Source: a virus. Taken from it: a DNA stretch of 44,119 nucleotides. Shown one piece after another: positions 7,537-42,575 of this stretch. Numbering within the stretch: position 1 is the stretch's first letter; each line of letters begins with the position of its first letter. The notes under the pieces were generated by a model, which saw only the letters and a program-made list of their open reading frames with translations, made no database searches and was not told the origin of the DNA. Location: UHGV virus genome UHGV-0175781; one strand, 5' to 3'. Made by a program: the position numbers and the translations under genes.

Positions 7537-8259
7537 TTAACGGCGGCGACGTTTACGTGGCGCTTCGTCTTCGTCGTCGTCATCATCTTCGTCATCGCGT
7601 GGCTTACGACGTTTACGAGGTTTTTCATCTTCGTCATCGTCATCACGACGTTTTGACTTTTTGGACTTGCGTGGCACTTCATCTTCGTCGTCGTCGCCCA
7701 GGTCTTCGTCGGAGCAAGAAGATCCGCCACCGCCGAAGGCTTCGCCGTCATCGCGGAAGCGCAGACCCAAAAGACCGGCACCGAGTCCCTTGCCGTTGGT
7801 ATTGTTCCACGCCCAAATATCCAGGGACACGTTGCAATAACAACCGGAGTAGATCTCCTGGCCTTCGATCTCGTCGCCTTCTACGGTCAGACCTTGTTCA
7901 GTCTGCTTCTCGCCGAGTGACGTTTGAATGTTTGGCTGTTTGAACGATTTAGCGTTGATGTACAACATGCCTTCGAATTCTTCGGTTACTTCGTCGCGCT
8001 CGTCACCGTCGCGGACTGCGCATTCCTTAGAATCCTGGGCGTAGTGGCGGTCCATCCACTTATCAGCATTCTTCTCGGATTTCAGCTTGTCGGTGAGCAC
8101 TGCGCGCGCTGCCGCTTCCACTTTGTCCACCTGCGGATCTTCTTTATCAAGAAGAATCACTGCACGGTATGCCGGTTTTTGTCCATCCTGTTTAGGGGTA
8201 TCACGTTCCCAAATTTTAAGGAAACATACGCGCACATTTTTCAGGTTGACTTTAGCCAT
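7537..8259 (-). CDS. ssDNA-binding protein, DUF2815-like, with alternating acidic/basic C-terminal tail (ORF extends to 8280)
   Basis: core IYSGCYCNVSLDIWAWNNTNGKGLGAGLLGLRFRDDGEAFGG matches the DUF2815 phage SSB pattern; C-terminal 60 aa are blocks of DDDDEDE and PRKRRK. Confidence 0.6.
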   Translation of the reverse strand: MAKVNLKNVRVCFLKIWERDTPKQDGQKPAYRAVILLDKEDPQVDKVEAAARAVLTDKLKSEKNADKWMDRHYAQDSKECAVRDGDERDEVTEEFEGMLYINAKSFKQPNIQTSLGEKQTEQGLTVEGDEIEGQEIYSGCYCNVSLDIWAWNNTNGKGLGAGLLGLRFRDDGEAFGGGGSSCSDEDLGDDDEDEVPRKSKKSKRRDDDDEDEKPRKRRKPRDDEDDDDDEDEAPRKRRRR

Positions 8260-10503: not shown

Positions 10504-11043
10504 TTAGTCTTCCAGTTCGAAATAGGTTTCGACGATTTCTTTCAGGTCTTTGTGGAAGTCTTCTACGTCGTCATCTTCCAGTTTAGCGATTGATTTGATC
10601 TCGAACGCTTCCAGCAGGTCGTCGAATTCGTCGTTCGCATCGTCGTCATCGCCACCGGCAATAATCGCGGCATACTGTTTGATTTCGTCGCGCATCTCTG
10701 CCAGCGGGTCGGCATCTTTCTTACCTTTGCCTTTCGCTGGTGCTTTTTTACCCTTCGCCGGTTTTTCGTCTTCGTCATCCTCGTCGTCATCCTCTACGAC
10801 TTCTTTTTTAGCCTTACCTTTAGACTTGGTTTCTTTTGCCGCGCCTTTTTTCGTTTTAGGCGTATCTTCGACTTCGTCCTGATCGTAGTCGTCTTCGACT
10901 TCAGTCTCCGGCTTGGCCTTGCCCTTCTTAGCAGTGCCGTTTGCTTTTGGGTCTACGGCAGCGCCAACAGTTTCATAATGTTTAGCGATGGTTTCCAGTG
11001 CTACTACGCCGCGAGTAATCAGGTTTATGAATTGTTCCAACAT
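10504..11043 (-). CDS. highly charged, low-complexity early protein (acidic blocks alternating with lysine-rich blocks)
   Basis: 179 aa; first gene downstream of the near-consensus leftward promoter; GGAGA SD. Confidence 0.6.
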   Translation of the reverse strand: MLEQFINLITRGVVALETIAKHYETVGAAVDPKANGTAKKGKAKPETEVEDDYDQDEVEDTPKTKKGAAKETKSKGKAKKEVVEDDDEDDEDEKPAKGKKAPAKGKGKKDADPLAEMRDEIKQYAAIIAGGDDDDANDEFDDLLEAFEIKSIAKLEDDDVEDFHKDLKEIVETYFELED

Positions 11044-11308: not shown

Positions 11309-11638
11309 ATGAATATCAACGACGCAATCGAAATGTTAACGAAGACTGTTTGCAGTGAGACAAGCCGGTCATGGGCGTATACCGATGCCGTGGGTGCGGT
11401 GCTATTTGAAATCGAACGTCTGCGACTTACCGAAAAAGAATTGCGCGCCAGGCTGGAATTGCTCAACGGTACGGCGGCGAGCAAGCTGCAGAAGCACAAT
11501 GAAGAAATGGAAGAATACAAAAAACAGGTTATCCGTTTGCGCGCCGAGGGCAAATCTTGGGCGATGATTGCCGAGTTGACCGGAATTAATCAGAGCACAG
11601 TGCGCTCCTGGGTACGCAATAATAAAACTTCCAAATAA
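11309..11638 (+). CDS. HTH DNA-binding protein (candidate regulator or replication helper; ORF extends to 11249)
   Basis: C-terminal helix-turn-helix GKSWAMIAELTGINQSTVRSWV; GGAGA SD before ATG 11309. Confidence 0.6.
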   Translation: MNINDAIEMLTKTVCSETSRSWAYTDAVGAVLFEIERLRLTEKELRARLELLNGTAASKLQKHNEEMEEYKKQVIRLRAEGKSWAMIAELTGINQSTVRSWVRNNKTSK

Positions 11639-11642
11639 GGCT

Positions 11643-13913
11643 ATGACCATGAGTTTAATTAAATTCGCCGTAACAAGACCCGCTAAAAAAGGCGAAAAAG
11701 CCAGGGCGGAAAACTTCCAGATGACTACCGAAGAGTTTTTCGAATTTATCAATGATGCGAAAGAAATCTCCTCGGTGCATATCAACAAGACGGAAGATAA
11801 AGCCGAGTATGCGCGCCGCAAGCGTAAGGCCGACGGCATCGTGGCGTATACCAGTGACGGATTGCGTCGTAAGACCAGTGCGGTGGACCGCTCGATCCTG
11901 TTCTTCGATATTGACCGCACCGACACCCGCACCCTACGCCGCTGCCGTAAGGCGTTCATTGACGCGGGTCTTGAACACGTATTTCACACCACAACCGGCG
12001 ACCGTCACCCACTGAAAGGTGGAACACGTTGCGCTCGCTTCCTGGTGTTGACGGACAAGCCTGTACCGGCTGAAGACCTGGGACGCGCCCAGTATGCCCT
12101 GTTAGCCCAACTGGGTCTGTCAGATGTGGACTTCGACGATTGCACGAAAGACACAAACCGCCTGATGTACCTGCCACACCAGCAGTCTGTAATAAAGTGT
12201 CATTACGGCAAACGTGCCCGCGTCCGTCGTCTGCTTCGCCTGGCGGATAAGCTGGGGGTGGATAAAGAGGAAGTACGCCGCGAACTAACCAAGGGAGACG
12301 ACGAAGTGGCGGACGGCATTCTGGACTGGTGCTTCCAGGCAGGATTCGAACCACTGTCGTCCGGGCGTGGTTATGAGGTGCCGTGCCCGAACGAACATCT
12401 GCACAGCGGCGAAGGGTCCACCGCCATAATGGTTAAGGATGGCGAGATCCGTTTCAAGTGTATGCACACCGGAAACGAGTGTTGCTCGGAACTGAACAGA
12501 CACCAGCACCTGGCGCTACGTCTTATCGGGATCCCGGACCACCTGAACGTCGAGCCACACAATATGTCCCGTAAGCAAATCGCCGCCATCCTTCCGGGGC
12601 TGGACGACGAGGAAGTGGAGTCGTGCTATGAACATATTGTTGATGCGGTTGGCGACGGCGAAGAATACGGCGTGTGCACCGATGCGGATCTGGATAACGA
12701 GCCGGTTGCGCTGTTCAGTAAGCACGACCCGATCATCGAGGGGTTGATTAACTTTAAATCGACCTGGTACATGGCTGGCGAGTCGAATATCGGTAAGTCT
12801 TTCTATGTGCTTGGGCAGATGGGCGCGGTTGCCGCCGGTATTCCGTTTGGCGGTGCGAAGGTCGTCCAGTCTCATTGCTTCTATTTCGACGCGGAAGGTG
12901 GCGAAGCCTCCAACCAGCGCAAAGAAGCATTGCAGATTAAATACGAGCACGACCTGGACAAGCTGCACATTATCGACCTGCAATCACGCGGCTGGGATAT
13001 CACAAGCAAGTCCGGCTTGCGTGAAGTTATCAGCTTCATCAATCGCACCGCTAACGGTGAACCTGTTGGCCTGGTGGCGTTCGACTCACTCAACCAGACT
13101 GTTGCGCTGCGGTCCGCCGATGCTAAACCGTTTGACGAGAACAACGCCAGCGATATGGGTGAAGTGGTCAAAGCGCTGAAAGCCATTGCGGAAAATACAG
13201 GTGGCAGTGCGGGCGTCATCCACCACCCGGCGAAGGGTGCAAACGGCAGCAGAACCCCACGCGGGTCCGGCGCGCTGCATGGTGCTGTCGATTCAGCGTT
13301 CTTCCTGGAACAGCCGGACGACAACCAGCCCGGGCAATTGAACCTGTATCATGAGAAGTCACGTAACGGCATCAAGCAAGCGCCGCGCGGCTTCGTCCTG
13401 CTCAAGTGCAAGGTGAAGGTAGATCTCCGCAAGTCAGAAGCGTTCGAGGCGCACCAGTCCACCAGCACTGGGCCAGACTTCGGCGACGTGGTTGCCGGAT
13501 GGGACGTCAAGCCGATTGCCTCCACGCCTCGCGACGAGACTCTCTACCTCGTACCGGTTGCCCTGGCACCGTTCGCTATAGAACAGGCGAAGGCAGCAGG
13601 CAAGGCCGCGGTTAAGGAAGAGAACACCGCCGGACCGCGCAACGAAAAAGAGAAAGTGCTTTATGCGGCCCTGGAAAAACTGATGGAAGATAACCCGGAC
13701 CATACTGGATTCAGTAAATCGGCAATTGTCCGCCAGGCCGGACTCGCGAAAGGTGGCACATCGACGAAGGCAATCGACGATATGGTCGAGCGCGGCGTAC
13801 TCGGTTTTTATACAGATCCGCACACTGGGGCCATCTATGGGTCGTCGAATATCGTCATCAAAACGAATATACCCATCACGCTTTCGGCGACCGATGACGA
13901 CCTGAAAGATTAA
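11643..13913 (+). CDS. DNA primase/helicase (AEP-type primase-like N-terminus, zinc-binding region, C-terminal RecA-fold ATPase)
   Basis: 756 aa; LFFDIDR acidic motif; Cys/His cluster CPNEHLHSGEGST...CMHTGNECC; Walker A GESNIGKS; Walker B LVAFDSL. Confidence 0.75.
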   Translation: MTMSLIKFAVTRPAKKGEKARAENFQMTTEEFFEFINDAKEISSVHINKTEDKAEYARRKRKADGIVAYTSDGLRRKTSAVDRSILFFDIDRTDTRTLRRCRKAFIDAGLEHVFHTTTGDRHPLKGGTRCARFLVLTDKPVPAEDLGRAQYALLAQLGLSDVDFDDCTKDTNRLMYLPHQQSVIKCHYGKRARVRRLLRLADKLGVDKEEVRRELTKGDDEVADGILDWCFQAGFEPLSSGRGYEVPCPNEHLHSGEGSTAIMVKDGEIRFKCMHTGNECCSELNRHQHLALRLIGIPDHLNVEPHNMSRKQIAAILPGLDDEEVESCYEHIVDAVGDGEEYGVCTDADLDNEPVALFSKHDPIIEGLINFKSTWYMAGESNIGKSFYVLGQMGAVAAGIPFGGAKVVQSHCFYFDAEGGEASNQRKEALQIKYEHDLDKLHIIDLQSRGWDITSKSGLREVISFINRTANGEPVGLVAFDSLNQTVALRSADAKPFDENNASDMGEVVKALKAIAENTGGSAGVIHHPAKGANGSRTPRGSGALHGAVDSAFFLEQPDDNQPGQLNLYHEKSRNGIKQAPRGFVLLKCKVKVDLRKSEAFEAHQSTSTGPDFGDVVAGWDVKPIASTPRDETLYLVPVALAPFAIEQAKAAGKAAVKEENTAGPRNEKEKVLYAALEKLMEDNPDHTGFSKSAIVRQAGLAKGGTSTKAIDDMVERGVLGFYTDPHTGAIYGSSNIVIKTNIPITLSATDDDLKD

Positions 13914-13988
13914 TTTTTGCGCGCATTGGTTGCCGGTATGGGAATTCCCATATCGCTAAGAGATTAATTTTTGCGCGCATTGGTTGCC
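13907..13988. repeat. two 28-bp direct repeats (AGATTAATTTTTGCGCGCATTGGTTGCC) flanking a 14-bp perfect palindrome ATGGGAATTCCCAT
   Basis: seen in sequence; first repeat overlaps the primase/helicase stop codon; a third partial copy (CGCATTGGTTGCC) at about 14011. Confidence 0.7.
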
Positions 13989-14071
13989 ATTTTGAGTGTT
14001 TTTAGCTGGTCGCATTGGTTGCCGTGTGATGTAAATATAATGCATAGTTATGCAATAAAACTGCATAAACC

Positions 14072-14231
14072 AAACGGGACAAAAAGCGGGACAAACAGGA
14101 GGCGGGACAAAGCGGGACAGCACCCCTGTCCCGCCAGTGCTGCCGCGGCTTCCAGAGGAGCGGGACAGCGGGACAGCACCCCAGTCTTTCAGACTAGACG
14201 GGGGGTCTGGCACCCCCCTCGTCTGAGACTG
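14072..14231. repeat. iteron array copy 1: at least 7 GCGGGACA(R) units (one inverted pair) followed by a ~50-bp bulged hairpin
   Basis: seen in sequence; about 85% identical to 30330..30491; flanked by CTGCATAAA boxes and an AT-rich tract. Confidence 0.8.
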
Positions 14232-14390
14232 CATAAAATCCAGGATTGCAAAATACACGGCAGCATGTTGTGGATTGCGGTCGTCACTGAACTAGGCAAC
14301 CAATACGAGTTGCAGAATGGTGGGTGAGAAATGCCGTTTGCAGTCACAACTGATAGCGATCAACTTTTTCATGCGCGTGATTAATATTGG

Positions 14391-14419
14391 TTGCATTCGC
14401 GCCAGCACCCTGCTAGATT
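14391..14419 (+). promoter_or_regulatory. putative promoter (-35 TTGCAT within ATTGGTTGCAT, 17-bp spacer, -10 TAGATT)
   Basis: seen in sequence about 30 bp upstream of gene 14448. Confidence 0.4.
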
Positions 14420-14447
14420 GGTTGCACACCAACAAGAGGACTGAACA

Positions 14448-23032: not shown

Positions 23033-23144
23033 CCCGTCTGCGGACCCCGACGAAGATTTGATGATTGACGTGAAAAATATGGAATGCGGGGCGAAGCTAA
23101 GGGCGCAGGTGCTGGAGTTGCAGCAAATAATTAAGGGGCCATAA
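22914..23144 (+). CDS. o-spanin (Rz1-like outer-membrane lipoprotein), overlapping the i-spanin in another frame (ORF extends to 22842)
   Basis: MLRALTALIVVLTLSAC lipoprotein signal with lipobox LSAC; AAAGAGG SD; proline-rich mature part. Confidence 0.6.
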   Translation: MLRALTALIVVLTLSACGSSSVPLMPLTESALRPPCKFDNPSADPDEDLMIDVKNMECGAKLRAQVLELQQIIKGP

Positions 23145-23157
23145 TGGCCCCTTTTTC
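23134..23157 (+). terminator. rho-independent terminator (AGGGGCC-ATAAT-GGCCCCT plus T5)
   Basis: seen in sequence; o-spanin stop codon lies in the loop. Confidence 0.6.
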
Positions 23158-23923: not shown

Positions 23924-23989
23924 TTTTATGTCCTCATTGTTGGTGTGCAACCAATATAGCGCAACCAATTCCCGCAGTGCAAGCGAATT

Positions 23990-29430: not shown

Positions 29431-29460
29431 TTTGGTCGCTTAAATAGCGGGTGTTAATAT

Positions 29461-29483
29461 GGGGCCTGTATGGCCCCTTTTTA
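29461..29483 (+). terminator. rho-independent terminator (GGGGCC-TGTAT-GGCCCC plus T5)
   Basis: seen in sequence. Confidence 0.6.
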
Positions 29484-29498
29484 TTGGAGAATACTACA

Positions 29499-29861
29499 AT
29501 GGCTAAAGCACCACTCTTTACACTAGACCCTAAACCGACCTTTAAGCTGCCGATTGAGATCCCGCGCCCTGGCGAGAACGAACCGGGCAAAATGACGTTT
29601 ACCGTGCGCCACCGCCCTATCGACGAATTTTCGCAGACCATGCAGGACACTGAGCGCAAATTGTCGGAGTATGACGACAATGACCCGGAAGGCTTTAACG
29701 TTATGGTCGAGGCCATCATGCACGTCGCAGAGGGTTGGAATCTTCCAGACGAATTTAACGCGGAGAACGTCCGCCGCCTGGTAGTTAACTATCCTCGCGC
29801 GTTCGGCGTGTTCCATACGTCGTACTATCTTGAACTGATGGGATTGCGTGAAAAAAACTAA
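29499..29861 (+). CDS. tail assembly chaperone G (ORF extends to 29451)
   Basis: GGAGA SD; ends at a slippery heptamer next to the stop codon; immediately upstream of the tape measure region. Confidence 0.7.
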   Translation: MAKAPLFTLDPKPTFKLPIEIPRPGENEPGKMTFTVRHRPIDEFSQTMQDTERKLSEYDDNDPEGFNVMVEAIMHVAEGWNLPDEFNAENVRRLVVNYPRAFGVFHTSYYLELMGLREKN

Positions 29862-30175
29862 TTGAGGCGGCGCGACGCTTTTATGGCCCGCCGCCACCCT
29901 CCGAAGATTTAGCCGCGAGTTTATGGGGCGCGGCCCCTGAAGATGTTTGCCCACCAGTTGCGCTATGGCCCGACAACGCGAAGGTAGTCGCAGTCTTCAC
30001 AGATTGCTCCACGCAATGGCGCACCGGATTCGGTGGCGCATACGGCATCGACTACGGCGTACTGGAATGGCTGTTTAAGATGCATGGCGTCGAAAACGCG
30101 CAGCGTGCGTTTAAAGATATTAAGCTAATGGAACGCGTTGCGCTGGATGAAATGGCGCGGCAGAACCCCGCATAA
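29499..30175 (+). CDS. tail assembly chaperone GT fusion made by programmed -1 ribosomal frameshift
   Basis: slippery A AAA AAC at about 29852..29858; the -1 frame stays open for about 105 codons to TAA at 30173..30175 (hand translation ends ...LMERVALDEMARQNPA). Confidence 0.6.
29852..29858 (+). other. slippery heptanucleotide A_AAA_AAC for -1 frameshifting
   Basis: seen in sequence: XXXYYYZ heptamer in correct register with the G frame, directly before the G stop codon. Confidence 0.6.
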
Positions 30176-30177
30176 CG

Positions 30178-30491
30178 GAGCGGGACAGGCGGGACGTCCC
30201 GTTTTGTCCCGCCACCATTAAACAGCATATATACTCACTTTCATTGCATAAATTAAAAGCGGGACAGGGGTGCTGTCCCGATCTGTCCCGCCTCCAAAAT
30301 GTGAATATCTATTCAGTTTTCGTGCATAAAACAAACGGGACAAAAAGCGGGACAGAATGGGGCGGGACAAGGCGGGACAGCACCCCTGTCCCCGCCAGTG
30401 CTGCCGCGGGTTTTAGCCGATCGGGACAGGCGGGACAAAGCCCAGTCTTTCAGACTAGACGGGGGTCATTGGCCCCCCTCGTCTGAGACTG
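30178..30491. repeat. iteron array copy 2: about 14 GCGGGACA(R) units in both orientations, palindrome CGGGACGTCCCG, then a conserved bulged hairpin
   Basis: seen in sequence; 30330..30491 is about 85% identical to 14072..14231. Confidence 0.8.
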
Positions 30492-30559
30492 AATAAGGTT
30501 TGTTTTAAATTCGCTGATACAATGACCGACGGCAACTGCATAAAAAGGGGGACTGCATA

Positions 30560-33202
30560 ATGGCAGATCAGGCAGCGGGCATCACGCTCAAGGCGGACGT
30601 CGCGCAAATTAAAACGGCGAATACTGTGCTGGACACATTTGCGCAGAAATCCGAGAACACAGAACAGAAAGTCAAAAAATTAAACGACACCCTCGGTAAG
30701 TCGAAAAAGGTTACTGGCGACGCCGCGGGCGGAATGGAAAAGTTAGCGACTGAATCGCAGCGCGCCGCCGACGGCATGACGAAACAGGAGCGACTAGCCA
30801 GCCGATTAGGCATGTCGACCAAAAACCTGGGATTCGCATCGCGGAATGCCGCATTCCAGTTACAGGATATCGCGGTTACGCTTGAGATGGGTATGCCGGT
30901 GCACCGCGTTATGCTTCAGCAGCTACCGCAGCTTACTGGGGCGTTTGGCGGACTGGGAAACACGCTGCGTTATGTCGTCGGCACACTCGGCCCGTTAGGG
31001 ATCGGCATCGCTGCATTAACGGCGACGTTAGGCGTGGGCGTGGCAATCGCGTCACGGGCAGAGAACCAGGTCGCCGCGCTTAATAAGACGCTGGCGCTGT
31101 CCGGTAATATTTCAGGCCTCACCGCTAACCAGATCCTGGTGCTGTCCGAGAACGCCGAGCGCATGGGCGGGTCATTTCGCAAGACGCGTGACACAATCCA
31201 GGCGCTGGCGGCGGCGGGTGTGAAAGCGGGCGGTGACTTCGGCGCATTGGCTAAGGTAGTTAATGACTTTGCGAAGGTGTCCAGCCAGCCGATCGAGGAT
31301 GTGGTAGCGGCTGTGGCGAAGCTGTCAACCGACCCCGTTGGTGGACTGCGTGCGCTGGCGGATAAGTATCACGTCGTAAACGAAGCGCAGATCCAGCAGG
31401 TACAGTCGCTCGTTGATGCGGGTCGTGAGACAGACGCAGTTGCGTTGGCTAACAAAACAGCCGCTGCGTCGTTCACCAGCATGACCAATGAAATCAAGTC
31501 CAACATGGGTACGCTTGAGCGGTCGATGAACGTCGTCACATCGGCAGCTAAATCTATGTGGGATGCAATCCTGGATGTGGGCCGCGCGCAGTCCTCGAAT
31601 GAGTCCGAGATGAAAGCGCGTGAGTCCTTGCAGCGCATGACCACGGCTTATTATGCCGAGATGAAAGCGGTAAACGCTGCCGGTGGGGTAATGACTGAAG
31701 CGCAGAAAGCACGTATTAACATGCTTTACAGCGAACTGGTAGCCCAGGAAAAAGTGGTGGCGTCGCTCACCCTGCGTAACCGTGCGGAGCGAGACAACGC
31801 CCGCGCCGCAGACGAATCCGCAAAGGCGAACGAGGAGGCCAACCGCACTGCCCGTGACCGCGCCGCGTTCGAGAAGGAATACGCCACCAACGCTAAGAAG
31901 CGCGCCGACGAGATCGCCCGCCTCAATTTGCTGAATAAGCGCGGCGTTATCGACGAGAAAGAGCTTGCTGAGGCGGTGAAGCAGGTAAACGAGCGTTACA
32001 AAGACCCCGCCCCGAAGAAGGCCGCGGCTGTTCGCGTGGATGCCGGTATGAAAATGCTGGAAGTTGCACGGAGCGAACTGGTCCAGCTTCGAGAATCCGG
32101 CAAGCAGATCGAAGCCAACGCATCGACGCAGACCCGCACGCAACGCGCTCAAGCGGCCTTAAACAAGCTGATCGCGGATAATGAGCAGTTAATTGCCGCA
32201 AGCAAAGAAAGGGCGCTAACGGCAGCGGAAAAGCAGCAAATGGCAGAATTCGGACGCGTGAAGGAAGTGCGCGAGCAGATCGTCGAAGAAGCCAAATTGC
32301 TGGACGCGAAAGAGAAGCAGGTCAAGGCGCACGCGCAGATCGATGCCTTCGTTAAGAACCAGAACGCCGAACTAAAAGCCACCGCGGCGGGCTATGCGCT
32401 TTCCACTCGCGAAGCGGCAAACCTGCGTGAAGAATTGCAGCTAATTGACCGCCTGAAGCGGGTTGGCGCTAACGATACCGATATTGACAAGGCGGTGTCT
32501 AAGCTGCGCGAAGTGCAGGAAGCACAGACCGGCGCTAACGCCTCGCTATGGGATGGCTTCAGCCGCGGGCTTAAGGATAGCGTGGATGATATGGGTAACG
32601 GATATACGCAGATGGCGTCACTCACAAAATTCACGTTCGGCGCTATGCAAGACACGATGAACGAGTTTTTCGAGACTGGCAAGCTGAACGCAAAGGATAT
32701 GGTTAAGTCCATCCTGAGCGAATTAATCAAGCTGGCTACATCGCAGGCATTCAAGTCCATTGTTAGCGCTTTCGGTGGCGATGGCGGCAAAAACGGATTG
32801 TTCGGCGCTATCTTCTCTGGCCTAACTAAGAATGCGGACGGAGGAGCGTACGCAGGAGGCAATCTCGCGGCCTATTCGGGGAAAGTGGTAAGCCAGCCTA
32901 CCTTTTTCAGTTATGGCGTTCAGGCGTTCGCTAAGGGCGCGGGATTGATGGGTGAGGCTGGGCCAGAGGCCATCATGCCACTGAAGCGCGGGCCGGACGG
33001 TAAACTTGGCGTTGCCGCGTCGGGAGCAGGCGGTGGTATGGTCGTGACGACCAACGTTTACACGGGGACTGGTAAAACGGATACCAGTGTCAGCGGGCCG
33101 GACCCCCGTACCGCGCAGGCGTTCGGCAAGCAAATCACCGAGGCGGTGAAGGCCGAGATCGTGAAGGCGACGAAACCGGGTGGTGTACTTTATAAACGAT
33201 GA
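30560..33202 (+). CDS. tail tape measure protein
   Basis: 880 aa, long Ala/Glu/Lys-rich helical sequence, glycine-rich C-terminus; SD AAAGGGGGA. Confidence 0.85.
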   Translation: MADQAAGITLKADVAQIKTANTVLDTFAQKSENTEQKVKKLNDTLGKSKKVTGDAAGGMEKLATESQRAADGMTKQERLASRLGMSTKNLGFASRNAAFQLQDIAVTLEMGMPVHRVMLQQLPQLTGAFGGLGNTLRYVVGTLGPLGIGIAALTATLGVGVAIASRAENQVAALNKTLALSGNISGLTANQILVLSENAERMGGSFRKTRDTIQALAAAGVKAGGDFGALAKVVNDFAKVSSQPIEDVVAAVAKLSTDPVGGLRALADKYHVVNEAQIQQVQSLVDAGRETDAVALANKTAAASFTSMTNEIKSNMGTLERSMNVVTSAAKSMWDAILDVGRAQSSNESEMKARESLQRMTTAYYAEMKAVNAAGGVMTEAQKARINMLYSELVAQEKVVASLTLRNRAERDNARAADESAKANEEANRTARDRAAFEKEYATNAKKRADEIARLNLLNKRGVIDEKELAEAVKQVNERYKDPAPKKAAAVRVDAGMKMLEVARSELVQLRESGKQIEANASTQTRTQRAQAALNKLIADNEQLIAASKERALTAAEKQQMAEFGRVKEVREQIVEEAKLLDAKEKQVKAHAQIDAFVKNQNAELKATAAGYALSTREAANLREELQLIDRLKRVGANDTDIDKAVSKLREVQEAQTGANASLWDGFSRGLKDSVDDMGNGYTQMASLTKFTFGAMQDTMNEFFETGKLNAKDMVKSILSELIKLATSQAFKSIVSAFGGDGGKNGLFGAIFSGLTKNADGGAYAGGNLAAYSGKVVSQPTFFSYGVQAFAKGAGLMGEAGPEAIMPLKRGPDGKLGVAASGAGGGMVVTTNVYTGTGKTDTSVSGPDPRTAQAFGKQITEAVKAEIVKATKPGGVLYKR

Positions 33203-40721: not shown

Positions 40722-42545
40722 ATGGCAGCGGGTACTCTATCCGTAACGAATAACAGCAAGGCGGTTGTCGGCGTCGGCACAACGTTTACCGCGTTCAAGG
40801 CTGGCGACTTCTTAACGCTGGTGGTAGGACAAGTGCCATACACTGTTGCGATCGCGTCCGTCGAAAGCGACACCGCGCTTACGCTGGTGCTGCCGTTCGA
40901 CGGCCCCACGGCAACGGGACTCGCGTGGGATGGTGTTAAGCGCGATACCATGTCGCTGGCGACGATGGGCGTAACCGTCCAGGCACAGAAAGCGTTGCGC
41001 TTGATGATCGCGGACGAAAACAACTGGCGTGCGATCTTCGGAGACGAAGAAGAAATAACGGTAACGCTGCCGAACGGGCAAGTTATGCAGGGTATGTCCT
41101 GGGGCTACCTGTCGCAATTGCTGAAGGAAGTTGACCCCGTTGAAATGCGCAACCTGCAACAACAAGCCGCGGCATCTGAAGCAGCAGCGCAAGGATTTCG
41201 CAATGAGGCCGAAGGCTTCAAGACGGAGACGGCTGGCATTCGCGATGCCACCAACCAGATTAAGGCAGATACGGCAGGCATTCGCGATGCCACTAATACC
41301 ATCAAAACGCAGACTGATCAGATTAAGGCTGATACGCAGGCGATCAAAGACCAGACTAACCAGATCAAGACTGACACCGGCGCTATTCGCGACGAGGCCA
41401 ACGCCGCGAAGGCTGAAGCGCAAGCCGCCAGCACTGCCGCGCAGGGATTTCGCGATCAGGCCGAAGAATGGGCGCAAAGCGTAAACCCCGACAATCTGCT
41501 AACCAAATCCGGCAACCTCGCCGGGCTTGCGGACAAAAGTGCGTCGTGGGCTAACCTTATGCCGTCAGGACCGCTTCGCGTAGGCGCGGACCCAGTCGAC
41601 CCTCTTGACTCTGCGACTAAAGGGTGGGTGTGGCGCGGTCTTGATGACGTGGGGATTTGGGGTTTACGCAATAATTACGCTTCAGATCCGGCGAATGGCG
41701 CAGAAGTATACGGCGGTAGATTCGACTCATCTGTGACCGTTGCTGGGGCCGAAAAATACAGAACGTCGATTCAGCTTCAGGGGCGTAATAACGTAGACGC
41801 CTGGACCCGTTTGGCGACCGTTAACGTCCTCGACCCGGTGAACTCGCCGTCGTGGGACTTTAAATATGATGGTAGGCTTATTTTTTATAAAGCATTGAGG
41901 CCATCGGCCATTTCTGCGTCGCCTGTTAATACCTACGCGACCCTTCCTAATACCTGGATGGACAGCCAGTACGCGGGCCACGTAGGTTTTATTGGTGGTG
42001 GCGCGGGCACGGCGGGTGGTGGGTGGCGTAACTTCATTTCGTTCGGGGCGTTGATTCACCCCGTTGCGGAGTCATCACACCCTCACGCTATGATTTCGCA
42101 GGTCTTTGACTATGATCTGGCGACTGGACTGCAGCCTAACGCCGATATAGTTCGGAATACTACCTTTAACGCCGAGTCATACGATATTACCTTCGGCAAC
42201 AACGCTGGGTCGGTTGGATATATTTTCGCAAAATCCCCGGTATCCGACAGGGCGCTGAAGCATGATATCGCCAGGATCGACACTCAAGTTGCGTTCGATA
42301 ACGTTATGGCAATGGAATACTCTTCCTTTGTCTATAATTACGACAAAAAGGAGACAGTCAGACGTGGTTTTATCGCGCAGCAGTTGGAAGAGATCGACCC
42401 GCAGTATGTTCGCAAGTACGCCGACGCAACTGGTAAAGAGTTTCTGGCATTAGATGAAAACGTCCTGTTACTTGACCTTGTCGCGACTGTTCAGCATTTG
42501 GCGGCGAAGGTTGAGGCTTTGGAAAGTAAGTTGGCGGAGAAATAA
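40722..42545 (+). CDS. tail fiber with C-terminal intramolecular chaperone (peptidase S74-type) domain
   Basis: 607 aa; heptad-like repeats (IRDATNQIKADT...) in the shaft; C-terminal SDRALKHDIARID...LAAKVEALESKLAEK matches the S74 autoproteolytic chaperone motif. Confidence 0.8.
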   Translation: MAAGTLSVTNNSKAVVGVGTTFTAFKAGDFLTLVVGQVPYTVAIASVESDTALTLVLPFDGPTATGLAWDGVKRDTMSLATMGVTVQAQKALRLMIADENNWRAIFGDEEEITVTLPNGQVMQGMSWGYLSQLLKEVDPVEMRNLQQQAAASEAAAQGFRNEAEGFKTETAGIRDATNQIKADTAGIRDATNTIKTQTDQIKADTQAIKDQTNQIKTDTGAIRDEANAAKAEAQAASTAAQGFRDQAEEWAQSVNPDNLLTKSGNLAGLADKSASWANLMPSGPLRVGADPVDPLDSATKGWVWRGLDDVGIWGLRNNYASDPANGAEVYGGRFDSSVTVAGAEKYRTSIQLQGRNNVDAWTRLATVNVLDPVNSPSWDFKYDGRLIFYKALRPSAISASPVNTYATLPNTWMDSQYAGHVGFIGGGAGTAGGGWRNFISFGALIHPVAESSHPHAMISQVFDYDLATGLQPNADIVRNTTFNAESYDITFGNNAGSVGYIFAKSPVSDRALKHDIARIDTQVAFDNVMAMEYSSFVYNYDKKETVRRGFIAQQLEEIDPQYVRKYADATGKEFLALDENVLLLDLVATVQHLAAKVEALESKLAEK

Positions 42546-42550
42546 GGATA

Positions 42551-42575
42551 AGGGGCCATGTGGCCCCTGTTTTTA
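42551..42575. terminator. terminator where the plus-strand late block and the minus-strand genes converge (AGGGGCC-ATGT-GGCCCCT plus T5)
   Basis: seen in sequence. Confidence 0.55.

Follow-up and report, generated by a model that had tools for sequence, protein, structure and literature searches.

A probable second replication-origin region between the GT and tape-measure genes of a Dhillonvirus

In phage P4, the octamer repeats of the origin recur several kb away in a second cis region, crr, where they stand in both orientations, and the alpha protein has an SF3 helicase. The oriV of RSF1010 combines iterons with hairpin ssi sites that are used by its primase. Phage SPP1 has one origin, oriL, in its replication genes and a second region with the same repeats, oriR, in a segment that breaks the conserved late-gene order; its protein G38P binds both, and oriR has been proposed to be a fork barrier that triggers the theta-to-sigma switch (PMC6316719, PMC3485210). 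P4 alpha, a primase-helicase with a Toprim primase, binds the origin repeats through a C-terminal winged helix, and in pRN1 the origin is a stem-loop just downstream of the primase-helicase gene orf904, which works when relocated in the plasmid (PMC4234260). In this study, we analysed the viral genome UHGV-0175781 (44,119 nt, hereafter the window) and, in particular, an array of GGGACA-type repeats in the gap between its GT and tape-measure genes. From the sequence comparisons presented below, we consider it probable that this array is a second, displaced copy of the replication-origin region of the phage.

The window is a complete or nearly complete genome of a Dhillonvirus, an E. coli siphophage of the SSL-2009a/JL1/HK578 group (97.5% identity to SSL-2009a over positions 29800–30900), with 159 matching phage records in GenBank. 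The GT gene stops with a TAA at 30173–30175 and the tape-measure gene starts with an ATG at 30560, the 384 bp between them being non-coding, as had been stated in an initial annotation made from the sequence alone. The same annotation held the position of the array to be unusual, and this is borne out by the relatives. GT directly adjoins the tape-measure gene in L017–L019 (G protein 42–44% identical), Hafnia phage TS33 and Salmonella phage SE2, and an insert between the two genes, which interrupts the conserved late-gene order, was found in Dhillonvirus and in Edwardsiella phage eiAU. At least 80% of the gap is covered in 151 of the 159 Dhillonvirus records. Across these records the gap sequence matches 424 places, and most records have two or more. 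In the window, the other copy of the unit (copy 1; 14041–14236, + strand) starts 128 bp beyond the stop of the gene for a 756-aa helicase-primase (11643–13913, + strand; phrog_3228), which is followed by a 535-bp non-coding stretch; the array in the gap is referred to as copy 2. The same two loci are annotated in Sodalis phage SO-1 (GenBank GQ502199), of the same genus, as the mutually similar repeat_regions ‘A’ and ‘B’, described as ‘of direct, inverted and palindromic repeat sequences’, a likeness that consists of annotation only.

The window contains 23 copies of the heptamer CGGGACA where 6.4 would be expected (sd 2.6), a number reached in none of 100 shuffles, with exact copies clustered at 14075–14175 (seven) and 30181–30437 (eleven). 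Iterons are present in both orientations; counting by eye gave nine GGGAC/GTCCC cores on the + strand of the gap and five on the − strand, in agreement with the approximately 14 units initially reported. Comparison of 14 genomes resolved the gap into three tandem modules of approximately 77 bp, each an iteron cluster followed by an AT-rich block that ends in TGCATAAA. Module 1 (30180–30213), conserved in the 14 genomes, is the palindrome GCGGGACAGGCGGGAC/GTCCCGTTTTGTCCCGCC with two direct and two inverted GGGAC cores, followed by TTTT; the palindrome CGGGACGTCCCG lies at 30190–30201. After AT-rich spacer 1 (30214–30256, with TGCATAAA at 30245–30252) comes module 2 (30257–30292), which reads GCGGGACA-GGGGTG-CTGTCCCG-ATC-TGTCCCGCC and contains CGGGACAG-GGGTG-CTGTCCCG at 30260–30280, so that both palindromes quoted in the initial annotation are present. 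Module 2 has two forms across genomes, one of them a straight copy of module 1 that replaces it in other Dhillonviruses. Spacer 2 (30293–30335), where the homology with copy 1 starts, contains the palindrome TGAATATCTATTCA (30303–30316) and another TGCATAAA (30323–30330). Module 3 (30336–30437, + strand) consists of six direct CGGGACA (30336, 30348, 30363, 30373, 30422 and 30431) plus one degenerate inverted copy and is homologous to 14075–14175. It is followed on the same strand by an irregular hairpin, CAGTCTTTCAGACTAGACGGGGG-TCATTGG-CCCCCCTCGTCTGAGACTG, at 30443–30491.

Copy 1 is built from the palindrome TGCATAGTTATGCA, TGCATAAA, seven CGGGACA (six direct and one inverted) and the hairpin. 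Aligning 14030–14260 with 30290–30520 gave a mean column identity of 86% over approximately 195 bp, which upholds the earlier claim that the 3′ part of the array duplicates the copy-1 unit. The homology starts with a 14-bp palindrome, takes in six direct iterons and finishes with the 49-nt hairpin, whose stems are identical in the two copies and whose loops are GTCTGGCA and TCATTGG, again as first described. All five + strand copies of TGCATAAA lie inside the two repeat regions (six copies in all in the window versus 1.4 expected). Blocks of 70–80% AT at 30214–30256, 30293–30335 and 14025–14074 flank the iterons and are candidate unwinding elements. The 14-bp palindrome that starts both units (14041–14054 and 30303–30316) has the form TG(A/C)ATA-NN-TAT(G/T)CA. 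Its half-sites TGAATA and TGCATA vary independently and are freely combined from genome to genome, a pattern suggestive of a site for a dimeric protein and not of an RNA stem. At 14041–14054 it overlaps the expected transcription start of a TATAAT at 14036–14041. An ArgR box was considered for TGAATATCTATTCA and rejected, TGCATACCTATGCA standing at the same place in other genomes.

In an alignment of 28 units, comprising both copies from 14 genomes, the direct CGGGACA and the stems of the hairpin show no change, or a change in one sequence only, whereas the spacers and the hairpin loop vary, giving 14 hairpin variants. The initial annotation had taken constant stems with a changed loop as a sign of selection on structure. 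The pattern itself holds, but the stems are invariant rather than co-varying, no compensatory changes are found within Dhillonvirus (RNAalifold covariation term +0.28), and the central inverted repeat GGGACAGCACCCC-TGTCCC decays freely and is not kept as a hairpin across genomes. Invariant stems fit sequence-specific recognition and structure equally well, and structural selection is not supported as stated. Identity between copy 1 and copy 2 within a genome (0.833) slightly exceeds that between genomes (0.817; permutation p = 0.007), and the same polymorphic variants turn up in both copies. An exact scan of IMG/VR with the hairpin core GACGGGGG-N3-14-CCCCTCGTC was also made, and its matches outside Dhillonvirus and eiAU look like chance occurrences in GC-rich coding DNA.

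Phage eiAU (Eiauvirus), from the sister genus, has the same genome plan as the window and carries repeats at both places, after the helicase-primase gene and in the gap between GT and the tape-measure gene, the two regions having a homologous block of approximately 60 bp in common. The motifs in eiAU are CGCCCCG and GCAACCAAC, not GGGACA. Its helicase-primase is 47% identical to that of the window and homologous only up to residue 644, the C-terminal domains being 20% identical. The hairpin core GACGGGGG..CCCC-T-CGTC is kept before the eiAU tape-measure gene with a different outer stem. Since the two eiAU regions match each other in a motif of their own and the C-terminal domain has diverged, the two copies appear to co-evolve within a genome, together with that domain.

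A link between array and helicase-primase was also found in distant phages, from two directions. Starting from the motif, we scanned IMG/VR for two closely spaced exact CGGGACA. Most hits were chance singletons, and 25 non-Dhillonvirus contigs carried true multi-copy arrays; these contigs were searched by tblastn with every open reading frame (ORF) of the window. Six of the 25 encode a helicase-primase homologue, with 19–23% full-length identity to the window protein, and the helicase-primase (core) is the only window protein common to these six contigs. The array starts within approximately 20 bp of the helicase-primase stop or overlaps the 3′ end of the gene in five of the six; in the sixth (L153), a 95-aa ORF lies between gene and array. 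Starting from the protein, 80 loci were fetched by helicase homology alone, 75 of which had enough downstream DNA. At least four GGGACA were present within −150 to +450 of the helicase stop in 41 of the 75 loci. After dereplication, 26 of 59 loci had arrays, the density being 6.4 sites/kb near the stop versus 0.43/kb in the rest of the loci. At least four further loci with arrays were undercounted because the array holds the reading frame open beyond the true end of the gene. Most of the remaining loci carry, in the corresponding position, repeats of a heptamer variant (GGAACA, GTAACA, GTGACA, GCAACA, GAAACA, CCGGACA, GGAGACA or CCGCACA). TS33 and SE2, whose helicase-primases are more distant, were uninformative, having no clear iteron array and no second copy. 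The RepA-like helicase-primase family is large, 556 of 600 candidate stretches having been confirmed, and heptamer arrays at the helicase-primase stop codons are a feature of the family (loci L161–L240, IMG/VR). In this family the arrays usually precede a long palindrome of inverted iterons around a C-run/TTTA/G-run core (iteron-Cn-TTTA-Gn-iteron), and the Dhillonvirus hairpin with its half-palindromes looks like a rearranged form of it.

The window helicase-primase is predicted to consist of an N-terminal putative primase, in which conserved Cys/His residues suggest a zinc finger, a helicase core like that of RSF1010 RepA and a C-terminal winged helix (AlphaFold, mean pLDDT 79). The core (AAA_25, RecA-type) superimposes on RSF1010 RepA (1nlf/1g8y) with an rmsd of 3.0–3.2 Å over 244 columns. 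In the last 112 aa, AlphaFold gives a helix-helix-helix-strand-strand winged helix (core pLDDT approximately 87–90) at about aa 665–740 (13635–13862, + strand), followed by an acidic tail. In Foldseek searches of the PDB with this domain, the matches were for the most part to proteins with a winged helix (MarR family, linker histone H1, RIO2 and ORC2). A homologue search with the C-terminal 197 aa alone found nothing, whereas the full-length query gave matches. In the window protein, the predicted recognition helix aligns with a C-terminal helix of the relatives, and among 59 distinct relatives the residues that start this helix track the heptamer: dibasic KK/RK/RR goes with GGGACA, KQ with CCGGACA, (R/K)E with GGAGACA, and V/M/T with the A-containing variant heptamers. 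Such pairing is the pattern that would be expected for direct readout of the heptamer by the protein.

Taking these comparisons together, the most plausible reading of the GGGACA arrays is that they are iterons cognate to the helicase-primase family, and, if so, they would be replication origins. The GCGGGACA heptamers would be docking sites for the phage’s own helicase-primase, whose C-terminal winged-helix domain would read them, and we infer that the protein binds both clusters. Copy 1, just after the helicase-primase gene, would be the canonical origin, this being the canonical position in the family. Copy 2, with the same iterons, AT-rich blocks and hairpin, would have been inserted between GT and the tape-measure gene, where it could act (a) as a second firing origin, (b) as a tightly bound barrier that stalls forks from copy 1 and, in the way proposed for SPP1 oriR, brings about a change to recombination-dependent concatemer synthesis, or (c) as a cis enhancer like P4 crr. 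We lean slightly towards (a) or (b) over (c). Apart from the array, a conserved putative extended −10 promoter immediately downstream of copy 2 is probably where transcription of the tape-measure and tail-tip genes restarts. A stronger version, which we regard as distinctly unlikely, is that copy 2 is no redundant origin but a programmed checkpoint coupling replication to virion assembly. In that case, helicase-primase on the palindromic iteron modules would stall forks that arrive from copy 1, a break at the stalled fork would feed the phage exonuclease and annealing proteins for concatemer synthesis, and occupancy of the array would tune the tape-measure promoter, so that expression of the tail-tip genes would rise only when replication is under way.

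Among the known systems, SPP1 offers the same layout of two regions with the same direct repeats and AT-rich DNA, one at the replication genes and the other among the late virion genes, and Dhillonvirus likewise encodes an exonuclease and a Gp2.5-like ssDNA-binding/annealing protein. However, SPP1 has a separate initiator (G38P), a loader and a DnaB-type helicase, whereas in Dhillonvirus one helicase-primase, with a predicted C-terminal winged helix, is the candidate binder. SPP1 oriL is located within gene 38, copy 1 downstream of the helicase-primase gene, and the two systems have no sequence homology. P4 resembles the window in having one multifunctional primase-helicase with a C-terminal winged helix (predicted in the window) for the origin repeats, but the window protein has a RepA(RSF1010)/RecA-type core and the repeats are unrelated in sequence. 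In pRN1, too, the origin is downstream of the primase-helicase gene, although, according to its authors, iterons are lacking there. RSF1010 RepA is structurally closest to the helicase core of the window, but RSF1010 leaves the reading of its iterons to a separate protein, RepC. It may be speculated that the Dhillonvirus hairpin is a priming site.

Several observations weigh against an origin at copy 2. It lies approximately 16 kb from the helicase-primase gene and so lacks the adjoining initiator gene by which iteron origins are recognized; of the three roles put forward in the initial annotation, a second origin is nevertheless the one best supported, by arrays that lie at helicase-primase stop codons and change with the C-terminal domain. 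The pairing of residues and heptamers is confounded by phylogeny, and the corresponding Dhillonvirus helix, TSTKAIDD, is without the dibasic signature of other GGGACA-type relatives, so the putative protein–DNA code carries over uncleanly to the window phage. The Foldseek matches are generic (probability 0.85–0.99) and their E-values weak (0.04–0.3). A small helix-turn-helix (HTH) protein encoded just upstream of the helicase-primase (11309–11638, + strand) is an alternative candidate for the iteron binder. GC skew marks no origin; it follows the direction of transcription and is lowest near 11 kb, where the early promoters diverge. Neither region has DnaA boxes, IHF cores or GATC clustering, the missing DnaA and IHF sites being neutral for a self-initiating phage. 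Copy 1 stands at the head of a long rightward operon and copy 2 before a promoter, so a transcriptional role fits too. In the literature, we found no functional study on Dhillonvirus origins, promoters or transcriptomes, on HK578/SSL-2009a/JL1, on the SO-1 regions or on GGGACA iterons.

That transcriptional role is the content of the alternative that survives best, which we judge unlikely but deserving of attention: the gap would be a transcription-unit boundary, with a terminator (module 1 and its T run) followed by a regulated internal promoter, and a phage transcription factor would set tape-measure and tail-tip expression by way of the GGGACA sites, its operators or activator sites; copy 1 would act likewise at the head of the late operon. 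An extended −10 element, TGaTACAAT (CTGATACAAT; 30515–30523, + strand), is invariant in the 14 genomes, lies approximately 37 bp upstream of the tape-measure ATG and has the features of an extended −10 sigma-70 promoter (TGn with a TATAAT-like hexamer, suitably spaced from the gene). This putative promoter gives partial support to the internal promoter proposed initially, but it lies outside the iteron array. A standard −35/−10 scan finds no pair and no −35 element at 30515–30523, and standard promoter and terminator scans of both regions make no + strand call inside the array. Module 1 (CGGGACGTCCCG then TTTT) is annotated as a rho-independent terminator in the GenBank record of HK578, a call that our + strand scan does not reproduce, and the record of WFI also annotates a terminator within the gap. 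The hairpin at 30443–30491 is no intrinsic terminator because it has no T run. Also in keeping with a boundary, a conserved TATAAT/TATAGT precedes copy 1, which lies before the rightward gene block, the HTH protein has a motif like sigma-70 region 4, and an intrinsic-terminator-like hairpin (GGGGCC..GGCCCC then TTTTT; 29461–29477, + strand) stands 3′ of the major tail gene and upstream of G/GT, making a restart downstream plausible. The geometry, however, is inconsistent: the array lies 80–340 bp upstream of the tape-measure promoter with the hairpin between them, whereas at copy 1 it is downstream of the putative promoter. Moreover, what the array accompanies in distant phages is the helicase-primase gene, the last codons of which it often overlaps, and no shared regulator, and the motif changes with the C-terminal domain of the helicase. 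As a promoter and an origin can coexist, the boundary would account for only part of the region.

It is also conceivable, though very unlikely, that copy 2 is a tolerated by-product with no function of its own, an origin copy captured by illegitimate or homologous recombination at an insertion hot spot. The junction of GT and the tape-measure gene does tolerate insertions, since L020 and eiAU carry unrelated inserts there: approximately 700 bp with an apparent reverse-strand ORF in the former (L020:500–1100) and a reverse gene, gp54, without Pfam match in the latter (L241, 42121–43015). The two alternative forms of module 2 likewise indicate structural turnover. Nevertheless, copy 2 is invariant or nearly so in its direct iterons and hairpin stems across the 14 genomes while spacers and loops drift, and the gap region is present in 151 of 159 records. 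eiAU, moreover, has retained the arrangement with another motif, one that still agrees with the motif of its own copy 1; this needs either continued selection or continual conversion.

Highly improbable, finally, is a structured cis-acting RNA, sense-transcribed in both copies, which could serve for antitermination in the put/nut manner, as a site for RNase III or as a protein sponge. In its favour are the co-orientation of both copies with the genes, folding modestly better than shuffles (z = −2.15 and −2.96), fixed stems under varying loops and a hairpin core retained in eiAU under a different outer stem. Against it, the whole window has no Rfam match at the gathering threshold, and two-sided changes affect only 2 of 18 pairs, in both cases through the one sequence from eiAU. 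The central inverted repeat has not been kept, the motif is found in either orientation and forms perfect palindromes in the DNA, and the arrays of relatives overlap coding sequence and co-vary with a DNA-binding domain. The RNA processing or antitermination role suggested initially is accordingly not supported, given the missing covariation and Rfam match. A CsrA sponge and a CRISPR-repeat mimic were dropped for lack of a motif match to consensus sequences taken from general knowledge. A host element, prophage or small-RNA mimic was considered as well, and no similarity to any complete E. coli genome was found.

Some further features of the genome were recorded. According to the annotation of SSL-2009a and SO-1, the early replication genes are on the − strand, left of approximately 11 kb; genes on the + strand begin at 11309 with the HTH protein, and to the right of the 535-bp non-coding stretch runs a long rightward block of small genes, lysis, terminase, head and tail genes. 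The terminator-like hairpin after the major tail gene belongs to a set of near-identical ones (GGGGCC-N4-6-GGCCCC then a T-rich run) at 23132–23156 (close to 23.1 kb), 29458–29482 (3′ of the major tail gene) and 42549–42573 (3′ of a 607-aa ORF ending at 42545). A second motif, (A/T)ATTGGTTGC, occurs 15 times in the window versus 3.8 expected (1606–1632, 4565, 11110, 13924–14022, 14296, 14385–14425, 15209, 23947–23970, 40695 and 43810), mostly in intergenic DNA or at gene ends and, where checked, on the strand of the downstream gene. Several of these sites read ATTGGTTGCAT-N16/17-TAnnnT, a sigma-70-like promoter with TTGCAT as the −35, and two read ATTGGTTGCACACCAACAA(G/T)GAGGA directly before start codons (14448, + strand, and approximately 23915, − strand). 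Both origin-like regions of eiAU contain arrays of the reverse form, GCAACCAAC, and the HTH protein is a candidate for binding this motif. Imperfect direct repeats rich in TCGTC (29-nt family D1) at 7553–7695 and 10754–10884 may reflect repetitive acidic coding sequence on the − strand.

In summary, the comparisons would add Dhillonvirus to the known cases of dual origin-like iteron regions, with a putative family-wide link between heptamers and the helicase-primase winged helix as a by-product. Dhillonviruses are common, easily grown E. coli phages, several of which are in the BASEL collection and have been used in studies of defence systems, and we found nothing published on their mode of replication. 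If both regions are origins, they would provide an E. coli counterpart of SPP1 oriL/oriR and make it possible to test by genetics how circle-to-circle replication gives way to concatemer synthesis in a lytic siphophage. They would also mark sequences that engineered phages must spare, the gap between GT and the tape-measure gene looking attractive as a ‘non-coding’ insertion site. The link between heptamer array and winged helix would allow origins to be predicted in hundreds of uncultured phage genomes and, should the checkpoint version prove true, the helicase-primase family would yield a readable winged-helix/heptamer recognition code across hundreds of phages.

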